NCBI GenBank assembly: GCA_021788365.1
Contig: JAJYKS010000001.1
Span: forward strand, 70,113 to 134,112
Direction of reading: 5' to 3'
Length of the DNA stretch: 64,000 nt
DNA from: a bacterium
Lineage (GTDB): Bacteria; Patescibacteriota; Microgenomatia; UBA1400; UBA12108
The notes under the pieces are model-generated. The model worked only from the letters and a program-made list of their open reading frames with translations. It did no database searches and was not told the DNA's origin. The stretch's first letter is position 1; every line of letters starts with the position of its first letter. The position numbers were made by a program, and so were the translations under genes. Shown one piece after another: positions 612-18,189 of this stretch.

Positions 612-1541
612 TTACCACGGAATGCGGAAAACCAGGCGGAGCAGAAGCGTGTGGAAGAGATAGATGGGGTATGACCATATGCCGAGCTGCACCAGCGGGC
701 GCCAGGACTTGAACGACCCCTCGCCAATGCAATGCGCGAGTGTAAAGAGTGCCACAATGGCGAACCCGGCGTAGACAAGGGTCCCTATCTCGGTAAATCG
801 CATGGCGATAATGGGGTCTACCCCGCTCCCCACAGCTTGAATGGCACCTGTAGCAACAAACAAAAAGGATACGGCCGTGGCTATGTAGAGACTACTACGT
901 GTTGCGCTTGATTGTGTGAGATGGCGATGGATACGGGGGAGGTGCATGCCGAGCACATAGTAGAAGATCCAAGTGAAAAACCAGCGGTATTGCTCCTGAT
1001 CGTTCCCGAGAACCGTTGCGTGTGCATAGAGCCACCACTCAAAAATAAAGGCGGCGGCGAGTGATATCCACGGCAGTTTCTCGACGAGCTTTTTTACCAA
1101 GGGAAAAAGGAGATAGAGCTCGAAGATCATGGGGACAAAATAGAGCTGGTAGTCGGCGCTACCCCGCACGAGTTGCAGCCAGAGCGGCCCGACATCCCCC
1201 AGTGCTTTCCACGAGGGGATAAAGAAAAAGATGAGGTTAAACAACAGGCTAGCGCCAATATAGAGCGGCAGTAATTTGCCCGCTTGGCGCTTGACGAAGT
1301 CCCAAAAATGGAACGGAACTCCCTGATATTTTTGCCAGAAACTATAGCCAGAGAGGGCAACAAAGAGGGGGACGGAGAAGCGGGAGAGTTGGTCCAGACC
1401 GATTGCGACCCACGACCAGCCGGATGAGGGATAGTAGTCGCCGTGGATACTCGAGAGTGTGTGGATTGCAAGAACGGCGAGTATGGCGAGACCGCGTAAA
1501 ATATTGTTGACGAACGCGTCGCGCGCGGTGGGTTTGGCCAT
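612..1541 (-). CDS. acyltransferase family 3 (OafA-like) integral membrane protein
   Basis: 309-aa ORF with about 10 hydrophobic helices; N-terminal motif ILRGLAILAVLAIH and overall layout match acyltransferase_3 family. Confidence 0.6.
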   Translation of the reverse strand: MAKPTARDAFVNNILRGLAILAVLAIHTLSSIHGDYYPSSGWSWVAIGLDQLSRFSVPLFVALSGYSFWQKYQGVPFHFWDFVKRQAGKLLPLYIGASLLFNLIFFFIPSWKALGDVGPLWLQLVRGSADYQLYFVPMIFELYLLFPLVKKLVEKLPWISLAAAFIFEWWLYAHATVLGNDQEQYRWFFTWIFYYVLGMHLPRIHRHLTQSSATRSSLYIATAVSFLFVATGAIQAVGSGVDPIIAMRFTEIGTLVYAGFAIVALFTLAHCIGEGSFKSWRPLVQLGIWSYPIYLFHTLLLRLVFRIPW

Positions 1542-1747
1542 ATCGGATTATTATACGGTGAAATGTGAGGCTACCAAAGGGAGCAATAATGAGTGTCGAG
1601 AAGGAGCGAAGAACCTTGAACCACCTGACGGGCTCTCAGATGCCATCCGTAAAAGCTGGGATAGCAGTATCCTCAAGAGCGATCTTTTTTCTCGAGAAGA
1701 GGACAGGGTCTTGACTTCCCGGACTTATAATAAGGCTAGTCTATCAT

Positions 1748-1984
1748 ATGAATACTAATACGTCGCACCAGATCAGCCAGCTAGCTACCCCACCGTTGAG
1801 TGCGAGTAGTGCGTCCGAAATTGCTACTACTCCCCCCTCTCCCATTACACGCTTAGTCCAGTCACTACTGACTGTGGATGTGCATGCGGCAGACGCGATA
1901 GCAAATGCAGTGAGCGTCGACAACGGGTCGGGTCAGCGTATCGAGCTTAGCCACGATACCCCTGGACCAGATTTCATTAAGTAA
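1748..1984 (+). CDS. hypothetical small protein (weak call)
   Basis: 78-aa ORF in a 470-bp intergenic gap; Ser/Ala/Thr-rich, no obvious RBS. Confidence 0.2.
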   Translation: MNTNTSHQISQLATPPLSASSASEIATTPPSPITRLVQSLLTVDVHAADAIANAVSVDNGSGQRIELSHDTPGPDFIK

Positions 1985-2013
1985 TTAAGAAGTAGTAGCT
2001 TGAACCAGTACAC

Positions 2014-2739
2014 TTATTTAGCCAATCTAGCCCTTCCCCCCACCATGACATATAGTCCCTCGAGATGCCGGGAATAGATCACCGAACCTTTTCCATGATG
2101 TATTTCGATAGGTTCAGGGGTGTTTTCCGGCTGTAGTTCCAGTGCTAAGAGCATACTTCCCGAGCCGTTCGCCTCGTCCTCTGGTATGCCCCAGTCTGGA
2201 GCAAACGTTCGCGCCCTGATGCTCGCCCCCTCTTTTATCCAAGCCCATGAGACAGTATGTTGCTTTGTGGCGGCTTGTTCTACTGTAATTGCCTCCACTT
2301 TAGCTGGTGATGCTAATTGTTCAACATTCCAGTGTGGTAGGTGAGTTTTGTTTGTCCTAACCCAGAGTAGGTTGTCTTCCTCAACCACCTTACTCACCTT
2401 GCCCATACTTAGGACCGTGTCGGTATGTATGTGAGATATGTTACGTGCGTACCAGGCAGCTCCGAGGATGGCGTGACCGGCAAAAGCTACTTGTTCTTGG
2501 GGGTTGTGGATGGTTACCCGGAGAGGGTTTAGCATGTCGACGAAGACTGACTCGCTATACCCCAGATCTATGGCAATCTCTTGCCTCTCGCCCATACTTA
2601 GCTTGTGGTCAAGGTCAATGACTATACCGACAGCGTTGCCATACTCATCATGCTCATCGACAAAGACGTTTACTGTATGTGATTCGTGGTTACTTGGCTG
2701 ATACGTCATATGTAAATAATACCAGTAGCTGCTGCTCAC
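2014..2739 (-). CDS. PhzF-family (phenazine-biosynthesis-like) isomerase
   Basis: N-terminal HTVNVFVDEHDEYGNAVGIV resembles the PhzF VDAFT..GNPAAVV signature; the two-lobed length fits. True start may be the internal Met (MTYQP) at about 2709. Confidence 0.55.
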   Translation of the reverse strand: MSSSYWYYLHMTYQPSNHESHTVNVFVDEHDEYGNAVGIVIDLDHKLSMGERQEIAIDLGYSESVFVDMLNPLRVTIHNPQEQVAFAGHAILGAAWYARNISHIHTDTVLSMGKVSKVVEEDNLLWVRTNKTHLPHWNVEQLASPAKVEAITVEQAATKQHTVSWAWIKEGASIRARTFAPDWGIPEDEANGSGSMLLALELQPENTPEPIEIHHGKGSVIYSRHLEGLYVMVGGRARLAK

Positions 2740-2829
2740 ACAATCCTGAATTCCAAGTGGTACAATTGCAACATATCAGCCACATAGGCCGCCACAAGCG
2801 GTCTTTTTTGTTATAAGGGGGTGATTTAC

Positions 2830-2970
2830 ATGAAAGATAAGATCAGAGAAAAGCTTTGCAGTGTATGTCGAGCTCAATATGATAATCATGTGCCGCTTTG
2901 GATATGCGCACGGTGCGTTAAAAAGGTTTTCGGCGAGAAAACACCTAAACGTACAACTAGTGAGCAGTAG
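2830..2970 (+). CDS. small zinc-ribbon protein (46 aa), absent from ORF track
   Basis: ATG at 2830 preceded by AAGGGGGTGA RBS; MKDKIREKLCSVCRAQYDNHVPLWICARCVKKVFGEKTPKRTTSEQ has CxxC...CxxC. Confidence 0.35.
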   Translation: MKDKIREKLCSVCRAQYDNHVPLWICARCVKKVFGEKTPKRTTSEQ

Positions 2971-3092
2971 AGAGTGGGATTACATACCAAGACACCAATT
3001 AGACTTAAATGCGTGACAAAAATAGTCCGTGTCGTTCTACCAGCATAAGATGTGATGCGCATGCCCATTGTCTTGTGCCGTGGCTTTTTAGT

Positions 3093-3635
3093 CTAGGTTT
3101 CTTTGTTTTTCTTGAGTTGTGTGCCGGAGGTTATGGGAGGCGATGGTATAAATGGGAGGGTGTCCTTTCCCTCCCAATGGAATAGTCCAAATAGACCACT
3201 AAGTTTCTTGCCCTTGTCGATCAGCTGGTCTAGGTACAAAGCAAGTATCCCGATACTTACAAGTGTAATGGATTCTTGAGATAGTTCCTTGCGATAGAAA
3301 ATGTCAAAACCGACGACAAGAAATATTACCGTTACAATTGCTTCCTTATATTTCATTAGTATCTGTAGGGGAATAAATACCGTCTGCACAATTTGTCCAT
3401 ATATCGGTGTTACCATGACAATTAGAGCTTCTACTGGTGACACTTTCATAGCGTTACGGTATTCCCCTGTGGGTGGATCGTTGCTTTCTGGTGGTTTCTG
3501 TTCGGTGATATATATATGTTTCATTTTTCCAAACCACTCGGGAGGAAATAGTGGCAAAATACTCAACAGCCCCAACCCTAGTGGAACCCAGTTGTTCATT
3601 AGAAAACTTATAAGCAACGCATTCCCGTTTACCAT
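3093..3635 (-). CDS. hypothetical integral membrane protein
   Basis: 180-aa ORF with 4 predicted TM helices; no recognisable family motif. Confidence 0.4.
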   Translation of the reverse strand: MVNGNALLISFLMNNWVPLGLGLLSILPLFPPEWFGKMKHIYITEQKPPESNDPPTGEYRNAMKVSPVEALIVMVTPIYGQIVQTVFIPLQILMKYKEAIVTVIFLVVGFDIFYRKELSQESITLVSIGILALYLDQLIDKGKKLSGLFGLFHWEGKDTLPFIPSPPITSGTQLKKNKET

Positions 3636-3716
3636 AATGGCTTTATTTTACCAGTATCGTCTATGCTCAGTTTTATTTTGGCTTGACATAGACCCACTAT
3701 ACTTACATAGGAGTTT

Positions 3717-4187
3717 ATGTCGAATATAGATTGGCAGGCTGCACGGACAAAGTACATAACTAGCGGGTGTACTCTTGAGGAAATTTCCCAAGACTTCGGG
3801 TGTGACCCTAGCACGGTCAGGCTTCACTCCGCGATGGATAGGTGGGTAGATGCTCGAGAGGAAGCGCAACAAAAGGCCAACAAAATCACTACAGAAAAGG
3901 CTGCCGAGGACTTTGCTGAGATAAACCTAAGGCATGCAGAGTACGGCCAATACCTCCAACACCAGGCTTTGGCTTCCCTGTTAGACAAAGAGCGTCCAGT
4001 AGCCCCTAAAACTTTCTCAGAGGCTCTCTCTGCCCTCCGCGATGGCGTGAGGATCGAACGATTGGCCCTTGGCATGGATGAGGACAAGGGGTCTAAGACA
4101 GCCTGTGAGGTCGTGTACGTGCCTCCAACGTGGTATAAGCCACCTTCTGAGCCTACTGAGGTAGACGAGCCAACGAAAGTTGCGTGA
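3717..4187 (+). CDS. phage terminase small subunit-like HTH protein (could alternatively be an RDF-like DNA-binding protein)
   Basis: MSNIDWQAARTKYITSGCTLEEISQDFGCDPSTVRLHSAMDRWVDAREEAQQKANK follows the Terminase_2/P27-type N-terminal pattern (W..A...Y..G.S..EIA..FGV..STV......W...R); acidic C-terminus. Confidence 0.45.
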   Translation: MSNIDWQAARTKYITSGCTLEEISQDFGCDPSTVRLHSAMDRWVDAREEAQQKANKITTEKAAEDFAEINLRHAEYGQYLQHQALASLLDKERPVAPKTFSEALSALRDGVRIERLALGMDEDKGSKTACEVVYVPPTWYKPPSEPTEVDEPTKVA

Positions 4188-4194
4188 CGGCTAT

Positions 4195-4962
4195 TTATTG
4201 AGCTACTGCAAAGTTCACCGTACTTAACCCCGAAATGGTGATCTCATCACCATTTGTTAGGCTTACAGAGACGCTTGGCACCCCACCGTACTTTGTGTCA
4301 CCGCCTAGTATCTCATTGTACGAGTCAGCTCCCGACACTATGAAGTTTCCACTGTCTCCAGTTCCAGGAGTAACCATGTACCTACCAGCAGCAATGTCTT
4401 CCCCCACAGTGAACGTGCCAGCATATAGCTTTACGGGGCCGTATGCCTTCACAAATGGCGTGGTAACGGGAGTAAAGGTTACTTTGCTTAGACCGGAAAT
4501 TTTGATGCTGTCACCACCGCTTACCTTAACTCGCACTTTTAATACACCGCCCGCAGCGCCGGCACTGCCCAAGATTTCATTGTATGAGTCGGCGCCAGAC
4601 ATGATGAAATTACCGCTTTGGCCAGCTCCTGGCGTCACGTCATATAAGCCTACTGCCACGTCAGTGCCTCCAGTAAACGTACCAGCCCCGATTGTTTTTG
4701 CCGTTCCTACTACCTGTCGCTCGGCTGGTTGATTCGAGGGAGAAGCCTGAGTCTCAGAGGATGTCGTGGAGTTATTTCCCGTCGCGTTCGTGCTTTTGTT
4801 TCCGGAGTTCCCAGAACTCGCCACCATGGAAATTAGGATTATTGCGATAATGCCGGTTATGATGGGGTGTCGGACAAACCAGATTCTTTGATCTGCTTGG
4901 CAGTGGGGACACTTCTTTGCCTTGTCGTCTATGTCCATACGGCAACTTTTACACTTCTTCAT
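4195..4962 (-). CDS. Zn-ribbon / single-TM anchored surface protein with two tandem ~80-aa beta-rich repeats
   Basis: Start at internal Met: MKKCKSCRMDIDDKAKKCPHCQ (CxxC..CxxC), then a TM helix (IITGIIAIILISMVA), an S/T/N-rich linker, and two repeats sharing G.Y.VTPG.G.SGNFI.SGADSYNEILG....V.VS...GD.I.ISGLS.V.F. The repeat is visible at the DNA level at roughly 4200-4455 and 4456-4716. Confidence 0.5.
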   Translation of the reverse strand: MKKCKSCRMDIDDKAKKCPHCQADQRIWFVRHPIITGIIAIILISMVASSGNSGNKSTNATGNNSTTSSETQASPSNQPAERQVVGTAKTIGAGTFTGGTDVAVGLYDVTPGAGQSGNFIMSGADSYNEILGSAGAAGGVLKVRVKVSGGDSIKISGLSKVTFTPVTTPFVKAYGPVKLYAGTFTVGEDIAAGRYMVTPGTGDSGNFIVSGADSYNEILGGDTKYGGVPSVSVSLTNGDEITISGLSTVNFAVAQ

Positions 4963-5094
4963 ACTCTGTCCCTCCAGGCAGTACCTGCTATATATTGAGC
5001 GTAGCAAATTGCTATCTATAGTCAACACCTTTGCTTAAATGAGACCTTTATGTGACAGTGAGCTAGATTTCTCCGGAATCGATGTTGATTCTTC

Positions 5095-5679
5095 CTAGAA
5101 TAGCGGATGCGCGTTTTGGTCTAGATAGACGCTTATAGTCATATTTATCCCTGGAGGTACTCCTTGGAGCATAAACTTTATGCTAGACGGATTTAATGGC
5201 CAGGACTTAATAATTTCTTGGAACAGCTCGTCCACGTCAGCTAGATGAATTTCGTATACATTTCCTTGTATTTTGCGATCCTCCTCCCACTTTTGTTTTG
5301 GCATGACACTGGTTATTAGCGAAACGCTGTCACCGTTTTTATAGTTGGGGTAACGTATCTCTTCCCACCTGTGGATGTCTTTAACAGTTGCGTCAAATTT
5401 GGATAGTGACTGTTTGTCTGTCGTCCGCTTGTATTCTTCCCATAGCTTAGGTAAGTTGTGTCCAAACTTCTCGTATAGTTCTTCGGGAGTATATGCGCTT
5501 TCCTTGTAGAGCAACCTACCTTTTATTAGCATCTCGATGCCATGATGGAAAAGATTGCCGGCAACTGGAGATAGCGAGCAGAGATTGGCAAATCTTCCCG
5601 ATATGTAGTACTGAACGCCTATGCGCAGGTACTCACTCCATCTGGTGGACAGATACTTCACGCCATTCTTTGACCTCAT
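5095..5679 (-). CDS. hypothetical cytoplasmic protein (possibly HEPN-like)
   Basis: 194-aa ORF. N-terminal GRFANLCSLSPVAGNLFHHGIEMLIKGRL is vaguely reminiscent of HEPN R-x(4-6)-H helices; no firm family assignment. Confidence 0.35.
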   Translation of the reverse strand: MRSKNGVKYLSTRWSEYLRIGVQYYISGRFANLCSLSPVAGNLFHHGIEMLIKGRLLYKESAYTPEELYEKFGHNLPKLWEEYKRTTDKQSLSKFDATVKDIHRWEEIRYPNYKNGDSVSLITSVMPKQKWEEDRKIQGNVYEIHLADVDELFQEIIKSWPLNPSSIKFMLQGVPPGINMTISVYLDQNAHPLF

Positions 5680-5756
5680 ATTCTCCCCCTTTAGTGCTAT
5701 TTTCTCACGATAGGTGGGGTGGTTTACAAGTACTGGGGCTATAATGCGGTCAAAGT

Positions 5757-7307
5757 ATGACTATGAATACGGATGAGGTCGACGTCACAAAACTTCGATA
5801 TGTCCTTTATGCCAGGAAAAGTACCACCGACGAATCACGTCAGGTACGATCTATTCCGGACCAGATACGTGAGTGCAAGGAGCTGGTTACTAGGTTAGGT
5901 TTGCACATCGTAGGGAAGCCCCTACAGGAGACTCAATCCGCTAAACTTCCTAGGAAGCGACCTATTTTCCGACAAATGATTTCCGACATTAAACAAAAGA
6001 AGTATGACGGCATCCTCGCTTGGAATCCGGACCGTTTAGCTCGTAACATGCTGGAGGGTGGCGAGATTATTGACTTGATAGATCAGGGCATAATTAAAGA
6101 CCTTAAGTTCGTCACGCACCACTTTACCCCTGATGCCAATGGCAAAATGCTGCTTGGTATGGCCTTTGTTTTGTCAAAACAATATAGTGATGACCTCTCG
6201 CAAAAGGTCACTCGAGGAGTTCGGGCTAAATTTGCTGAGGGAAAGGGATCTGCACCCAAGCACGGTTACGTTCGGGATAAAGATGGTTACTATCGACCAG
6301 ACGGCAAAAACCATCGTTTGATAAAAGATGCTTGGCATATGAGGGTTGAGGGAAAATCCATCCTCGATATTGTTGCACATATGAACCGGGAAGGTTACGG
6401 GAGGAAGGTTAAGAAAACCGGAAAACAGGTAAAGATGAGTAAGCAGACGCTTAGTAGCATCTTCCACGACACGTTTTACTACGGAGTTTTAGCGCAGGGG
6501 GGAGAGACTATCGACCTTAGGAGCCAATACGACTTCGCTCCAGCGTGTACTGAAGCTGACTATAATGCTGTCCAGCAACTTGGCTATAGGAGAATTAAAC
6601 CGTCAAAGCCTCATACAACAGCTTTTTATCCCCTACGTCTTATGGTTTTGTGTTCGCATTGTGGACGAACTATGCGGGTAGGACCTTCAACGGGTAGGCA
6701 GAAGCGTTACCTTTACTTCCGTTGCGATAACCCGGAATGCAGTCGTAGCCCACGCTCAATCCGGTCAAAGATCGTGTTTGACTTTATCTACGGCTTACTT
6801 GCGGACGGATTGCCTCTAACTAAGGCGGATTATGACGAATATTCTAAAGCCCTGATCGCCCAGGCGGACGCGAAACGCCAAGAGCTGACTGTCGAGCTTC
6901 ATAAGCTACAGGCACAGTTAAAGGTTGTAAAGGCAGAGATACGTGATCGATCACTCAAAATCGTTAAGTTCGACGAGAAGAGCATCCCGTATAAGGAAAA
7001 CCTCCGTCGCATAGATGAGTTAGACGGACAAAAACATGACGTTCTCAGCAGATCTACGGCCATTGCACAACAATTAACCGACCCGGAATCTGACCGCCTT
7101 ACTATTGAGCAGTTCTTGAACCTAGCAAAAAATGCTGGTGCTATCGTTAAAAGTGGAAATGCCGTGGCAAAGGACACAATTTGCCGGTTGATTTTCTTGA
7201 ACCTGACTGTAGACACCGAGAAAGTCACGTCATATCAATTAAAAGAGCCATTCGCTACCCTACTGAAAAGCCGTAAAATCCTACCTGGTCGGGGTGCTGG
7301 GAATTGA
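5757..7307 (+). CDS. large serine recombinase (resolvase/invertase N-domain, recombinase domain, zinc ribbon)
   Basis: LRYVLYARKSTTDESRQVRSIPDQ catalytic-Ser resolvase motif; recombinase domain; C-terminal zinc ribbon CSHCGRTMRV...YFRCDNPEC with coiled coil. The last 22 nt overlap tRNA-Pro in antisense. Confidence 0.85.
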   Translation: MTMNTDEVDVTKLRYVLYARKSTTDESRQVRSIPDQIRECKELVTRLGLHIVGKPLQETQSAKLPRKRPIFRQMISDIKQKKYDGILAWNPDRLARNMLEGGEIIDLIDQGIIKDLKFVTHHFTPDANGKMLLGMAFVLSKQYSDDLSQKVTRGVRAKFAEGKGSAPKHGYVRDKDGYYRPDGKNHRLIKDAWHMRVEGKSILDIVAHMNREGYGRKVKKTGKQVKMSKQTLSSIFHDTFYYGVLAQGGETIDLRSQYDFAPACTEADYNAVQQLGYRRIKPSKPHTTAFYPLRLMVLCSHCGRTMRVGPSTGRQKRYLYFRCDNPECSRSPRSIRSKIVFDFIYGLLADGLPLTKADYDEYSKALIAQADAKRQELTVELHKLQAQLKVVKAEIRDRSLKIVKFDEKSIPYKENLRRIDELDGQKHDVLSRSTAIAQQLTDPESDRLTIEQFLNLAKNAGAIVKSGNAVAKDTICRLIFLNLTVDTEKVTSYQLKEPFATLLKSRKILPGRGAGN

Positions 7308-7359
7308 ACCCAGGCCTGACGCACCCCATGCGCCAATTCTACCGTTAAACCACACCCCG
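7286..7359 (-). tRNA. tRNA-Pro (anticodon GGG)
   Basis: Reverse complement is CGGGGUG-UG-GUUU..GAAU-U-GGCGC-AUGGGGU-GCGUC-AGGC-CUGGG-UUCAAUU-CCCAG-CACCCCG-A-CCA. The acceptor stem is a perfect 7 bp, the T arm is canonical, U33 and G37 are present, and CCA is encoded. D stem is weak (G.U, U-A, U-A, U.G). Coordinates may be off by 1. Confidence 0.75.
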
Positions 7360-7372
7360 AATAGAACAGGTG

Positions 7373-8014
7373 TTATTGTAGCATGAGGTAGGTGTGAATT
7401 TCCTGGAGATTGTCTATCGCACGCCCACCAGCTGCCCGAAAAACGTCTTTCGCCGTGGTATGTCCTGCAATTGCTAGAAACTGTATTCCTGCCATTCCTG
7501 CAGCTTGGAAATCAGTGAGTGCGTCTCCTATGTATAGTAATTCATTACGCACTATTCCACGGTCACTAAAATACCTGCATATCGGGTCAAAAACCCGGGG
7601 ATCGGGCTTGTGCACCTCTGTATCATCGGCGGTCTGAATGTACAAAAATGATCCTTGATCCACTCCTGCCTCTTCTAAGGCGGCATGGGTTAGTCGTCTG
7701 TTGGCTGCAGTCACGATTCCAAGTGGCAAGCGTCTGCACAGTTCGGCTACGACTGCGTGTGTTTCTGGGTATGGTGGTATGGGAAAATCACTGGTGATTG
7801 TGTAGTAATTGTTGAGGATGTTCTCAAGTTTATCGATATTGCCGTAGATACCTGCGACCATCTCCTCGAACGGTTTTCCCCAATGTTTATCGATATCTTC
7901 ATCTGTTAGCACTAGGTTGTAGAACTTTTTGGCTGCGTGTTTGTGAGCTGCGTATTTGGCAAGACGCGTTTGGATGAGCGTGTCGTCCATGTCGAAAACA
8001 ACGGCTTTTACCAT
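7373..8014 (-). CDS. HAD-superfamily hydrolase
   Basis: MVKAVVFDMDDTLIQT (DxDxT motif I), later GD motif. Confidence 0.7.
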   Translation of the reverse strand: MVKAVVFDMDDTLIQTRLAKYAAHKHAAKKFYNLVLTDEDIDKHWGKPFEEMVAGIYGNIDKLENILNNYYTITSDFPIPPYPETHAVVAELCRRLPLGIVTAANRRLTHAALEEAGVDQGSFLYIQTADDTEVHKPDPRVFDPICRYFSDRGIVRNELLYIGDALTDFQAAGMAGIQFLAIAGHTTAKDVFRAAGGRAIDNLQEIHTYLMLQ

Positions 8015-8041
8015 GAATATTAGTGTAGCAGGGAGCGCAAA

Positions 8042-9999: not shown

Positions 10000-11361
10000 T
10001 TATTGTCCGCTATTCAATTCTGCTGCTAGTGTACTCGCCGTATTTGCATCGGTTGTGTCTGCAGTAATCCGCGTTTTCTCGTCCTCGGTAAGCCAAGCAC
10101 GTTTTTGCATAACACCGGCCACTTCCTGTGCTAGTGCTAGTCGGCGTCGGAGGATTGTTAGGAGCTCCTGCAGCTTTCCCTGATCTACTCGACTGTCACC
10201 CACTGCTCCTTCCCAACTTTTTATGACATTTTGCAAACTGGTGACTGCGTCTGTCCAGCTTTGTACCGTCGATGTGTCATATGTTGCTGGGATATAGCCA
10301 CCAAGCTCACCAACTATAACCTGTGTGGGACAACCATTTACCACTTTGTCTATGGCGCCAACACCGATGTCTTGATAGTTTTTGTTTAGCACCTGTGAGG
10401 CTGTGTCTTTAAATGCTAAGAGGTTTTGCATGAGTTCTTCGGCGGTGTAGTGGCCATGACTCACAAATTCGCCCCCCACGATATTACTATAGCCAGCTAC
10501 CTTCTCTGCCTCTTGCTGCGATGATACTGAGCCTGCAGCGCGTAATGACGCGGCGTGTTCTAGCGTTTTGTTTGCCGACAGCGCAGCTATATTGTGACTC
10601 TTTCGCGCTGAGTCCAGGAGCGCGTAAAATGCCGATACGTTAAGCGTGGGTTGTCCCTCGAGTAGCGCGTCTTTTGAGGTGTCGCGCCACAATTTCTTGT
10701 ACAGGTCTTGGTCGCTGTAGGGCAAGACAAAGCTGATATCTTCCGCACGAATGAGCCCCAGCTCATACCGTGAGTCTGAGGAGATTTTGCGATTGTCGCC
10801 CAAGACAAGATACTCTCCCTGCGGGACTACTACCTTTTGACAGTCTGTGATGTTGGTACCGCCATATGTCGAGCGCGGGGCGGCAATGTATGGCTCAGAT
10901 AGGAGTAAACCATTACGGTAGACAAAGCCGTCGCGAAATTCTATGGTGTCTCCTGGCGTACCAATGACTCGTTTGATAAATCCTGCATCGGTCGGTTGTC
11001 CGTCTTTTTGCAAGATGGCGCGCGTGGCACTATTTTGGAATGCAACCATATCGCCAAAGCCGATCGTGCGCCTAAGATAGGTTTGACCGAAGACCGTAAA
11101 TCCAGTGAAATCGCGATACATGAGTGGTGCACTTCTGTATTCTTCAATGACTCTCTTTGATGGGTCTTCCGGTCCCCCGTCGGCTTTATCCCAAAAAAGT
11201 GATGGATACATGGATCCGGTACCTACAACGGAAACGGAGACCGGCACCAGCCCTACAGATTTTTCTATCTCATTTATGCTGATAGCGACGATGGGCATGA
11301 CCGCAGCGAGAATTATCGCCGTCGGAATAAATCGCAAGAGCTTGCCGAGTATTTTTTTCAT
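10000..11361 (-). CDS. signal peptidase I (S26) fused to a C-terminal CAP/YkwD-like domain
   Basis: N-terminal TM helix; GTGSMYPSL (SPase box B with catalytic Ser); GDNRKISSDSRYELGLI (box E). An extra ~230-aa C-terminal region carries GHYTAEEL...NKNYQDIGVGAI, like CAP/YkwD motifs. Confidence 0.7.
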   Translation of the reverse strand: MKKILGKLLRFIPTAIILAAVMPIVAISINEIEKSVGLVPVSVSVVGTGSMYPSLFWDKADGGPEDPSKRVIEEYRSAPLMYRDFTGFTVFGQTYLRRTIGFGDMVAFQNSATRAILQKDGQPTDAGFIKRVIGTPGDTIEFRDGFVYRNGLLLSEPYIAAPRSTYGGTNITDCQKVVVPQGEYLVLGDNRKISSDSRYELGLIRAEDISFVLPYSDQDLYKKLWRDTSKDALLEGQPTLNVSAFYALLDSARKSHNIAALSANKTLEHAASLRAAGSVSSQQEAEKVAGYSNIVGGEFVSHGHYTAEELMQNLLAFKDTASQVLNKNYQDIGVGAIDKVVNGCPTQVIVGELGGYIPATYDTSTVQSWTDAVTSLQNVIKSWEGAVGDSRVDQGKLQELLTILRRRLALAQEVAGVMQKRAWLTEDEKTRITADTTDANTASTLAAELNSGQ

Positions 11362-12176
11362 TGCGGACTCTTACCACAGACCTGTTTCACTTCTCGCATG
11401 ACCGATGCGCGACTCGCCTCTGGAAGCAGTGCAGCATTGTCGCCTTCTAAAAGTTCGCGACATACGACAACTTTGGCGGCAAGCAATCGCTCTTTATCTT
11501 CCTTTGTTAAACTGTCGAGCATGGTCACGGGATGTAGACCCGTGCGTTCAATGAGGTCCATGATCCCCTCACCTTTGGGATACCCCCAACTTGTGATGCG
11601 AATATCGCGACAGCGTGCATAGTCTATGGCATCTCCTGAAAAACGAGTGTTGGTTACGATCCAGGAACCCGTATTCCCGCCCTTCCACGCGTCGACAATA
11701 TCTTCATAGCGAGCGTGGATGTATAGTGTTACTTTAACATCGGTCCGCTGGGTTGGATTTTTGTGAAATTTTGCCTCGATGAACCACGTCCGATCATCCT
11801 TCACCGCTTCGACGTCTATTTCATGTGAGACACACGATCCCTGAACGATTTGATTTGTTTTACAGCTATACCCGATTGCTTCGAGGAGCAGTGCGGTATA
11901 TTGCTCGAATGGATAGCCAGAAGGACCTATTTCGGATAGTGCTTTTTTTAGATTATATTTGGAAGCATAGTGTGGCATATCCTTGCTATGGAGATATGCT
12001 TTGATGATATCGAAGATCTCACGAGTTGTGATACCGTCGTAGAGCTTGCTGTGAATGTCCGCGACCATGTCGTTTTGCACATCTTCTGGTACACCAACGC
12101 GCGAGGCAGAGGCACGAATTTTTGCTTCAGAATATGTTTCTCTTTCGCCATTTGCTTTTATAACGGTAACGGACAT
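11358..12176 (-). CDS. ATP-cone domain fused to Mrr-like (PD-(D/E)xK) restriction endonuclease domain
   Basis: N-terminal VIKANGERETYSEAKI ATP-cone; C-terminal IDVEAV...WFIEAKFHK PD-ExK nuclease core. Stop overlaps the SPase start (ATGA). Confidence 0.6.
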   Translation of the reverse strand: MSVTVIKANGERETYSEAKIRASASRVGVPEDVQNDMVADIHSKLYDGITTREIFDIIKAYLHSKDMPHYASKYNLKKALSEIGPSGYPFEQYTALLLEAIGYSCKTNQIVQGSCVSHEIDVEAVKDDRTWFIEAKFHKNPTQRTDVKVTLYIHARYEDIVDAWKGGNTGSWIVTNTRFSGDAIDYARCRDIRITSWGYPKGEGIMDLIERTGLHPVTMLDSLTKEDKERLLAAKVVVCRELLEGDNAALLPEASRASVMREVKQVCGKSPQ

Positions 12177-16567: not shown

Positions 16568-18189
16568 GACTTTCCTTTCTTTTTAACATGCGCAGCGACA
16601 ACGTGAGCCGCATCTGCGGGAAGTCCGATGTAGTCATCTACGATGATAAATCGTGGTGACCACTGTGGATTAAATTTGTTTTTAAAATTATAAAGCGATT
16701 TGTAGTCATACAACCTATTGAAACGTTCGAATATGAGACCTCGTAGTCGTCGCATTATTTGCGCCTCTGTTCTTATTTTATCAACATCGGCTAACGGAGC
16801 CATGCCTAGATGTAACGTGTCCCAGCCATTCTTTTTCCCGTATTGCACGGCTTCGTTTATCGTCGCCTCCATGACGCCGTTTGGCGAACTTGATCTTCTC
16901 ATCATGAGATCTATAACATATCCGCTCCCGTTTACCGGAAACAGACTTACCACACTCGTGAGTACGCCGCTCCGGTCATGTGAGATAAGTACTTTACCAT
17001 TAGCTATCGAGGGAAATGGGTAAAAACCCAGAGAAAACGTTAGTTCTGGCGCATGTTTTCTTGCAGTCCATTCTTGGTAAAGCTCGTCTATGTCGTGTAG
17101 CTCTTTCCATGGCAATCCCACCATGCTATACCAAGCGAAGTACACACCTTCTCTTTGACTGTGAGTAATCGCATGTCGAACATCGGCCATACGAGACCCT
17201 TCCAGTGTGTATGAAGGTATCGGGATCACTGCAGATTCTCCTACCTTTACTGCCTTGCCTGGCACGTGCTTTGTGGCACTTTCTTCTACGTTGTACCACA
17301 CGACGCTTAGACCTTGTCGGCGCGCCATATCACGAAATTCTAGTGCCGCCGCTCTAACATCAATACCAATCGGCATTCCAAGAACTATGAGGCTATTTTG
17401 TACACGCTTGTAGGCAACGGCTGACTGTCCGTTCTTGCTAAACCACCATACTTTATCTGACATAAGCGAAAAGTAATCCGTTTCGTCGTGGCCATACTGC
17501 TCAACTATTTTTTGCATGCGCTCACGATCCTCTGCGGTTGGCGTGGTGTGGTCGAATGCTGGAGCAAAGAGTGCTGTTGCAACGAGCGCGACAGCGAATA
17601 TTCCAATGGCGTTTATCGACCCTTCGAACCATCGTGCCCATTGCGTCTCGGCCCGTAGTGTATCCCTGCCTACGCCAAAACTTTCATATGCGTATTTTGC
17701 GGGAATGGTGCGTAGGTTGTATGGGCCCACAAATTGTGTGCGCATAAACCAATAGCCACCCACCATATACATAAATAGGAATGCAAGTATGATGGCGGTG
17801 GTTTTTAATGCCGAAAAAACTGCTAGCCGGTCGCTTTTGACATAGAACAGCTGACGCGAAACCACCAGTATTGCGATCGCACCACAGGTAAGTAGGAATT
17901 CTTCGACGTCTAGTCCTTTTATCATGTGCAATATGAGCGTGCCAATGAGGAGTACGATGCTGGTGAGCCACGCACGGTGCTTACGCCCCAGTAGATTTGC
18001 CGATAGTACCACGAGGCAGATACCCACGATGAGGGTGAGTGTGCGAGATGCATGGAGTACGTCCAGAGGTAATATTTCACGTAGCAACTGATATCGAGAC
18101 ATTGCTGGTGGCCACAGTGCCGATATGATATCCATCACACCTGTTGCCCCCACCGCGAGGGAAACGAGCTCTGAAGTCCAATTCCACAT
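16564..18189 (-). CDS. MprF-like aminoacyl-phosphatidylglycerol synthase (TM domain plus DUF2156/LPG-synthase C domain)
   Basis: N-terminal multi-TM region; C-terminal domain with conserved SDKVWWFSKNGQSAVAYKRV...LIVLGMPIG as in LPG synthase C domain. Confidence 0.55.
   Translation of the reverse strand: MWNWTSELVSLAVGATGVMDIISALWPPAMSRYQLLREILPLDVLHASRTLTLIVGICLVVLSANLLGRKHRAWLTSIVLLIGTLILHMIKGLDVEEFLLTCGAIAILVVSRQLFYVKSDRLAVFSALKTTAIILAFLFMYMVGGYWFMRTQFVGPYNLRTIPAKYAYESFGVGRDTLRAETQWARWFEGSINAIGIFAVALVATALFAPAFDHTTPTAEDRERMQKIVEQYGHDETDYFSLMSDKVWWFSKNGQSAVAYKRVQNSLIVLGMPIGIDVRAAALEFRDMARRQGLSVVWYNVEESATKHVPGKAVKVGESAVIPIPSYTLEGSRMADVRHAITHSQREGVYFAWYSMVGLPWKELHDIDELYQEWTARKHAPELTFSLGFYPFPSIANGKVLISHDRSGVLTSVVSLFPVNGSGYVIDLMMRRSSSPNGVMEATINEAVQYGKKNGWDTLHLGMAPLADVDKIRTEAQIMRRLRGLIFERFNRLYDYKSLYNFKNKFNPQWSPRFIIVDDYIGLPADAAHVVAAHVKKKGKS

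Follow-up and report, generated by a model that had tools for sequence, protein, structure and literature searches.

A predicted HEPN-fold protein and a predicted membrane-anchored repeat protein as cargo of a small tRNA-Pro island in a Patescibacteria genome

A 64,000-nt stretch of a Patescibacteria (Candidate Phyla Radiation, CPR) genome (contig JAJYKS010000001.1 of assembly GCA_021788365.1, positions 70,113 to 134,112; hereafter the window, in whose coordinates positions are given unless a contig is named) carries an integrated island of ~5.7 kb at the 3' end of a tRNA-Pro gene, inserted by a large serine recombinase. Two of its genes, both on the minus strand, encode protein A (255 aa; 4195-4962) and protein B (194 aa; 5095-5679). 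Their open reading frames (ORFs) had been correctly delimited in a first-pass annotation, which saw in them a candidate defence or exclusion pair. Sequence, homologues and an AlphaFold model predict A to be a single-pass membrane protein with its N-terminus inside the cell. B is, according to its modelled structure, a stand-alone cytoplasmic protein of the HEPN fold and belongs to a large unnamed family that spans phyla. A and B are co-directional, evolutionarily independent cargo genes (INDEPENDENCE of A and B), which travel together only in this island and constitute neither an obligate module nor a conserved two-gene system.

The island and its insertion site

The limits of the island were obtained by comparison with sister strains. 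An empty site in contig L120 aligns to window positions 1405-1598 and 7288-7497 at 98-99% identity, the two segments overlapping by the 4 nt GTCG. Since this alignment defines the junctions, the insertion amounts to ~5.69 kb (~1599-7291) located at the last bases of the tRNA-Pro gene, its exact ends being ambiguous within the GTCG common to both junctions. This crossover overlap lies at 1595-1598 on the left and at 7288-7291 on the right, where empty-site alignment and Rfam together place it at the tRNA 3' end. The target is a tRNA-Pro (GGG) gene on the minus strand, located at 7286-7359 by ARAGORN and at 7289-7359 by Rfam (RF00005, 54 bits). In contigs L120, L121 and L124, the flanking HAD hydrolase gene directly adjoins the acyltransferase gene located at 612-1541 of the window, which makes all three empty sites, and sample ERZ27237563 holds both a filled (L006) and an empty (L120) allele. 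The first-pass view that A and B are cargo of a small integrated element is thus borne out by the empty site. A search for direct repeats bounding the island gave chance matches only, and the junctions were therefore taken from the empty site.

In the integrase (516 aa; 5757-7307, plus strand), Pfam identifies the domains Resolvase (2e-21), Recombinase and Zn_ribbon_recom, and the protein also matches the integrase family phrog_95 (9e-61). Together with the precise insertion and the empty site in relatives, these domains define a large serine recombinase element. The 3' end of the gene overlaps the tRNA-Pro gene, and its ORF crosses the right junction, the last 16 nt, stop codon included, being host tRNA sequence. 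Because the ORF spans the junction, integration would alter the C-terminus of the recombinase. Were the island excised and circularised, the ORF would read into the left end and encode 564 aa rather than 516 (segments concerned: 7288-7307 and 1599-1758), although the 53 extra open codons could be due to chance (~8% by our own estimate).

B is transcribed divergently from the recombinase gene and lies upstream of A on the same strand, 132 nt away. A had been described as convergent with B; it is instead convergent with the plus-strand gene p156 (3717-4187), and the stop codons of A and p156 are 7 nt apart. Both the A and B ORFs are preceded, 8-10 nt upstream of the start, by Shine-Dalgarno-like sequences, GGAGG or GGGGGAG.

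Protein A, a predicted surface protein with two beta-sandwich repeats

The start codon of A is assigned to the ATG at 4962 and not to the GTG further upstream, at 5028, because its homologues begin MKKCKSCQ. The lysine/arginine-rich N-terminus, MKKCKSCRMDIDDKAKKCPHCQ, holds four cysteines, C4/C7 and C18/C21 (CxxC-x10-CxxC), within a predicted cytoplasmic zinc ribbon (residues 4-22; 4897-4953, minus strand), for which weak matches to Pfam DZR and Zn_Ribbon_1 were found along with a match of residues 1-84 to phrog_14275 (6e-11). A single hydrophobic helix follows. The transmembrane region was placed at residues 28-48 (4819-4881, minus strand) from Kyte-Doolittle hydropathy and AlphaFold; the best 19-residue segment (33-51) scores 2.08 on the former and the modelled helix covers residues 33-47. 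A linker rich in serine, threonine and asparagine then leads to two repeats with cores at residues 93-163 (4474-4686) and 181-251 (4210-4422), both on the minus strand. These 71-residue cores align without gaps and are identical at 46 positions, with a local score of 221 against 32.6 +/- 6.3 (maximum 62) in 1000 shuffles. In the AlphaFold model (93 homologues, pLDDT 89) they form two domains with a generic beta-sandwich fold, like that of carbohydrate-binding or nucleoplasmin-type modules. By the positive-inside rule and the zinc ribbon, the N-terminus of A is predicted to face the cytoplasm and the repeats to be extracellular.

The first-pass outline of A, namely a CxxC..CxxC ribbon, one transmembrane helix and two repeats, therefore agrees with our analysis, except for the remark that the repeat is obvious at the DNA level. 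The two copies are only 60% identical over 213 nt, the same codon is used at 14 of the 46 identical residues, and neither Tandem Repeats Finder nor find_repeats reported them. Such low DNA identity and so few common codons indicate that the duplication is an old, family-wide protein repeat.

No significant Pfam, NCBIfam or PADLOC family was found for A, and PHROGs gave unnamed families only, among them phrog_32160 (function unknown), matched at 3e-36 over the second repeat. The label 'Rv1352/Rv1906c domain' was discarded: the underlying NCBIfam match, 19 residues long, scores 18 bits where the cut-off is 25, and the literature on these names yielded nothing functional. An anti-sigma factor was likewise rejected, since a ribbon of 22 residues is too short to form a sigma-binding domain and its sequence contains no HxxxCxxC motif.

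More than 617 homologues of A were retrieved, the named ones originating from Saccharimonadales, Levyibacteriota and Acidimicrobiales. Their two-repeat ectodomain is 50-75% identical, and their anchors are interchangeable, consisting of a zinc ribbon and a transmembrane helix, a TM2 domain (PF05154), a proline-rich segment and a transmembrane helix, or a bare transmembrane helix. The domain also occurs in single copy in lipoproteins of the Bacillus phages PS1, PK-1, Jayan and Moonbeam; the sub-threshold match of a Bacillus phage homologue to PF12869 ('tRNA_anti-like') was not used. Of the A-family loci, 40 have 4 kb or more of flanking sequence; 12 of these encode a serine or tyrosine recombinase within 6 kb (10 of the 12 within 1.3 kb), and 4 have an adjacent XRE-type repressor gene. 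These neighbours indicate that the A family is a frequent, though not exclusive, cargo of integrated elements. In six loci that represent one A sub-clade (L050, L051, L058, L060, L097 and L111), a ~85-aa protein with the motif ...LGQRGGQIRAERLSAAERRAISKHAARVRW... is encoded directly downstream of the A homologue on the same strand.

Possible roles of A in superinfection exclusion or in the cell envelope

This architecture suggests that A would keep its small zinc ribbon in the cytoplasm and, by means of the flexible linker, expose its two conserved beta-sandwich modules at the cell exterior. It probably serves as an accessory factor at the cell surface, with a conserved component of the envelope as its ligand, and might thereby block phage adsorption or DNA entry. 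We consider A to be an independent island-borne surface protein that is probably accessory and possibly an exclusion factor, or else simply an envelope or adhesion protein.

Prophage superinfection-exclusion (Sie) proteins, such as those of the lactococcal Sie2009 type and Ltp of Streptococcus thermophilus TP-J34, are small membrane-anchored exclusion factors encoded near the integrase or repressor. A shares their layout: it is small, with a predicted membrane anchor and an extracytoplasmic domain; its gene lies 711 nt from the integrase gene of an integrated element; and phage homologues of its domain are lipoproteins. It differs from them in lacking significant homology to Sie families, since the matches to phrog_8545 (E 0.041) and phrog_4980 (E 0.055) involve only residues 22-81, that is, the transmembrane helix and linker. 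Moreover, the Ltp ectodomain is built of helical repeats rather than two beta-sandwiches. A literature search on zinc-ribbon superinfection-exclusion proteins found nothing.

A could also be an ordinary cell-envelope protein, namely a wall-binding or adhesion module of epibiotic, Gram-positive-like bacteria, which hitch-hikes on the island and has no exclusion role. The strong conservation of its generic beta-sandwich ectodomain across Patescibacteria and Acidimicrobiales while anchors vary would suit such a protein, as would the near absence of A from IMG/VR contigs and the lack of a detectable recombinase nearby in 28 of the 40 well-flanked loci (e.g., L033, where A lies beside an MFS transporter gene). 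However, the ~30% of A-family loci found within 6 kb of a recombinase gene are, by our own unmeasured estimate, far above what a random gene in a ~0.6-1 Mb genome would show. The occurrence of single-domain versions as Bacillus phage lipoproteins, the match to a PHROG family at 3e-36 and the fact that A is one of only two genes common to two otherwise different tRNA-Pro islands (see below) also count against this reading. An ordinary envelope protein thus seems to us possible, if somewhat unlikely.

Protein B, a predicted stand-alone HEPN protein of a large unnamed family

The AlphaFold model of B (17 sequences, pLDDT 85, pTM 0.84) shows an all-alpha, up-down helical bundle characteristic of the HEPN fold, so that the HEPN-like character suspected in the first-pass annotation proved right at the level of predicted structure. 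Its closest structural matches are TT1696, AF0298, ST0689 and the sacsin HEPN domain, all PF05168-type and several of unknown or non-nuclease function. Further features of the model are an inserted beta-hairpin and, past an RYP motif, ~80 additional residues at the C-terminus. Four of the 17 B relatives gave sub-threshold PF05168 matches over profile positions 5-93 of 117, with 15-18 bits (best 17.9, E 0.0036) against a gathering cut-off of 22 bits. When profiles of the B family (17 and 123 sequences) were run against a copy of the PDB, only chance matches and no HEPN structure were returned, the presence of the HepS structure in that copy being unchecked.

A profile search of 1.84 billion representatives identified 1,316 B-family clusters at 50% identity, 1,045 of them at 1e-10, from many phyla including Nitrospirota, Chloroflexota, Acidobacteriota, Planctomycetota, Myxococcota and Actinomycetota. 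One member, P0136 (288 aa), bears a ~100-residue N-terminal extension with two CxxC pairs, its HEPN domain thus being fused to a zinc ribbon. Across 123 members that are 25-47% identical, R29, H45, E49, H74, R109 and D150 are invariant and Y24, Y25, N42, H46, K53, W80, E106, Y110 and P111 nearly so. R109 lies in the sequence EEIRYP, the arginine itself being followed by YPNYKNG. No conserved histidine occurs at +5 to +7 of R109 in either the 17 or the 123 sequences, hence B does not carry the canonical Rx4-6H motif.

A subset of HEPN proteins, the AF0298-type HEPN-T group, has kept the arginine of this motif and lost its histidine, while a second conserved histidine lies upstream, and an alternative active site has been proposed for it (Anantharaman et al. 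2013, PMC3710099). In sequence, B follows exactly the same pattern, with R109 retained and H74, as well as H45, invariant upstream. Like this group (PF05168; PDB 2hsb), B has the E..LK, H.L..L and RYP landmarks, and stand-alone versions are known in the group. Unlike it, B falls below the Pfam threshold in sequence similarity, possesses the beta-hairpin insert, the ~80-residue extension and the additional invariant residues R29, H45 and D150, and has no nucleotidyltransferase partner.

A solo effector or a non-catalytic binder?

The genomic contexts of B relatives lean towards conflict systems. One B-family member is encoded beside a P4-type integrase in an IMG/VR provirus, another beside PIN_12 and an AAA_21/AAA_15 ATPase, and yet another beside HNH_2. 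No recurrent neighbour was found in 20 B-family loci. The nucleotidyltransferase (MNT) gene of HEPN-MNT modules was not found next to B either, as none of the six island proteins scanned showed a nucleotidyltransferase domain. Deposited phage genomes did not yield B, which was present in one IMG/VR contig only. PADLOC-DB v2 matched none of A, B, p156, the cassette protein p180 and the integrase, and gave a single chance-level match (E 0.018) among the 17 B-family members. A recombination directionality factor was also envisaged and rejected, since the B family is mostly found far from any recombinase.

Nuclease activity of B is plausible, and B is probably an RNA-cleaving protein of defence or toxin type. 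By analogy, it most likely operates in the manner of solo HEPN proteins engaged in conflict, e.g., HepS, AbiU2 and ApeA. HepS, from the Gifsy-1 prophage, is a solo HEPN protein that forms a latent tetramer and becomes an anticodon nuclease upon binding a phage tail protein, leading to abortive infection (PMC13043305). B resembles HepS in being a single small HEPN protein carried by an integrated element with no antitoxin gene beside it, and the ApeA and AbiU2-type solo HEPN defence proteins can be grouped with HepS in this comparison. It differs from HepS, in which the canonical motif is R100-x4-H105, by lacking that motif, and it is not recognised by PADLOC models. We propose that B would be a dimer or tetramer, normally latent, which would cut tRNA or mRNA through a non-canonical arginine/histidine site once triggered by an invading phage or element; it might thereby abort infection or stabilise the island.

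It is conceivable that B is instead a non-catalytic HEPN protein, either a nucleotide- or RNA-binding regulator or a former nucleotidyltransferase partner, rather than a nuclease or defence effector. Such a role would account for the missing Rx4-6H histidine and for the resemblance of B to PF05168-type structures of which several are unknown or non-nuclease in function, and HEPN domains that are inactive binders have indeed been described (Anantharaman et al. 2013, PMC3710099). Against it, the conservation of six invariant charged or polar residues, including two arginines and two histidines, over 123 divergent sequences suggests chemistry rather than simple binding, and the alternative active site mentioned above was proposed for exactly the motif pattern of B. 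A nucleotidyltransferase partner is neither present in the island nor recurrent in the 20 B-family loci, the contexts of which lean to mobile elements and defence genes. We therefore consider a purely non-catalytic B unlikely.

A and B as independent cargo genes

Whether A and B work together was judged from their relatives. Using tblastn and profile hidden Markov models, no B relative was detected in 88 A-family loci (541 kb), nor any A relative in 19 B-family loci, positive controls being recovered. Neither gene was found in three further sister islands. The 132-nt gap that separates them contains no predicted terminator or unusually stable hairpin (fold z-score +0.65), and its counts of promoter and terminator sites are at shuffle expectation; co-transcription of B and A within the island is possible.

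We weighed a coupled sensor-effector or exclusion module in which A would sense envelope events and control B through its cytoplasmic zinc ribbon. Such coupling would explain why the two genes sit on one strand, 132 nt apart with no predicted terminator or stable hairpin between them, and why they occur together in 8 of 8 island copies; the zinc ribbon extension of the distant B-family member P0136 also fits it. The eight copies are, however, 99.8-100% identical and count as one observation, while the two proteins co-occur in none of the 88 and 19 loci examined and B has no recurrent neighbour. The sister island in contig L126 carries A without B, many homologues of A have TM2 or proline-rich anchors instead of its zinc ribbon, and neither protein has a PADLOC match. 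A coupled module consequently seems very improbable. A more specific version, an undescribed envelope-sensing abortive-infection pair in which the surface modules of A would register phage contact or DNA entry and its zinc ribbon would release or activate B as a non-canonical HEPN nuclease, appears slightly more doubtful still.

Since the homologues co-occurred in none of the loci examined, an outcome that the first-pass annotation had itself named as refuting its proposal, the candidate defence or exclusion pair is not supported. In other respects its interpretation holds in part. A is a membrane-anchored repeat protein encoded near an integrase, a classic place for exclusion and abortive-infection genes; the functional pair, PADLOC matches and homology to Sie proteins did not materialise.

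Taken together, B as a solo HEPN conflict effector and A as an independent surface protein, possibly involved in exclusion, both carried by a tRNA-Pro island, is the reading we adopt, with confidence that is evenly balanced. Its structural statements are much firmer than its functional ones. Several points weigh against it. B itself has no Pfam, NCBIfam or PADLOC match, and its assignment to HEPN rests on the predicted fold, as no family or structure was matched by sequence; without the Rx4-6H histidine, RNase activity is not assured. A is nearly absent from IMG/VR contigs. The very high conservation of its ectodomain from phylum to phylum would suit a ligand of housekeeping type no less than a role in an arms race. 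Many loci of both families have no mobile-element marker, and the defence context is guilt by association.

Variable cargo and sister islands

Eight filled copies of the island share an integrase-B-A-p156 block that is 99.8-100% identical. Its last gene encodes p156, a 156-aa protein with weak Pfam and PHROG matches limited to an N-terminal helix-turn-helix (HTH) domain. The left end encodes a 78-aa hypothetical protein, p78 (1748-1984, plus strand), kept in all variants and with no Pfam match at E 0.05 or better. Between them lies a variable cassette (2007-3715). In the window it comprises the genes of a 180-aa membrane protein, p180 (3093-3635, minus strand), and of a PhzF-like protein (2014-2739, minus strand; PF02567, 2e-16). 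Comparison with L006 (3765-5758) and L007 shows that, within islands otherwise 99.8% identical, other strains have a 136-aa protein and a 441-aa AlbA_2/Schlafen-domain protein in place of these two. The PhzF-like protein, a putative isomerase, is an unusual metabolic passenger for so small an element.

These comparisons also bear on whether the island is a decaying remnant with A and B as non-functional leftovers. It is small (5.7 kb), the Pfam and PHROG results revealed no replication, transfer or capsid genes in it, and in one assembly A is annotated as a shorter protein of 210 aa. Yet all of its ORFs are intact and have good ribosome-binding sites, every family-invariant residue is retained in A and B, filled and empty sites in one sample point to recent gain or loss, and a cassette has been swapped inside the island. 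We thus find decay highly implausible.

The window recombinase has more than 1174 relatives at E 1e-60 or better, the named ones mostly from Patescibacteria. Related recombinases (53-65% identity) are encoded in sister islands. Five recombinase genes were examined (those of the window, L126, L127, L128 and L129), and the 3' end of every one runs up to, or into, a tRNA-Pro gene of opposite orientation; these sites lie at 2700-4296 in L126 and around 10500-10700 in L127, L128 and L129. The cargo of L126 includes a type IIG restriction-modification enzyme (PADLOC, 3e-106), PIN_12, a homologue of A (58% identity) and a HEPN protein that is weakly AbiU2-like and has an RDKILAH motif. L127 carries Abi_alpha and a methyltransferase, and L129 carries HTH_17, GP3_package, AAA_21 and DUF4276 along with restriction-type genes. 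The recombinase (53% identity) and A (58%) are the only genes common to L126 and the window island, B being absent from L126. The position of all five recombinase genes at a tRNA-Pro gene suggests a phylum-wide family of small tRNA-Pro serine-recombinase islands in Patescibacteria with swappable, often defence-type cargo.

Other features of these genomes deserve mention. p156 is weakly similar to terminase small subunits (PHROG, 4e-5; Pfam below threshold) and the sister island L129 encodes a GP3_package (P22 gp3-like) protein at 7586-8029; the two could reflect a satellite-like hijacking of packaging, or could simply be DNA-binding regulators or excision factors. A few kb past the far end of the L126 cargo (17107-17753), a canonical toxin-antitoxin pair of MNT (NTP_transf_2/Polbeta) and a HepT-like HEPN protein illustrates what a genuine HEPN two-gene module looks like in these genomes. 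In the window, a host protein encoded at 11358-12176 (minus strand) combines an ATP-cone domain with a weak match to an Mrr-type restriction-endonuclease catalytic domain (Pfam).

Implications for Patescibacteria islands and the B family

The locus itself is ordinary: an integrative island that targets a tRNA gene carries a membrane 'moron' and a solo HEPN protein as accessory cargo. Rousset et al. in 2022 reportedly described P4-like satellites and defence hotspots as tRNA-targeting islands with variable defence cargo. The Patescibacteria islands resemble these elements in having a site-specific recombinase at a tRNA gene and a conserved core with swappable cargo such as restriction-modification, Abi-type, PIN and ATPase genes. 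They differ by their hosts, their very small size and the use of a large serine recombinase instead of a tyrosine integrase. It is conceivable, though improbable, that A is the conserved functional core of this Patescibacteria-wide island family and alters the surface of the epibiont through exclusion or host attachment.

Two features give the locus some interest: the B family, which is large yet unnamed and has non-canonical invariant residues, and the apparent occurrence throughout Patescibacteria of a tRNA-Pro serine-recombinase island family that carries defence-type cargo. The B family, despite its 1,316 clusters in many phyla, is not captured by the copies of Pfam, NCBIfam or PADLOC used here. 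If its members are nucleases, they would provide experimental support for the AF0298-type 'alternative active site' and extend the defence repertoire by a solo HEPN effector. The tRNA-Pro serine-recombinase islands, apparently widespread in Patescibacteria, would offer a handle for cataloguing immunity genes in this hard-to-culture group.

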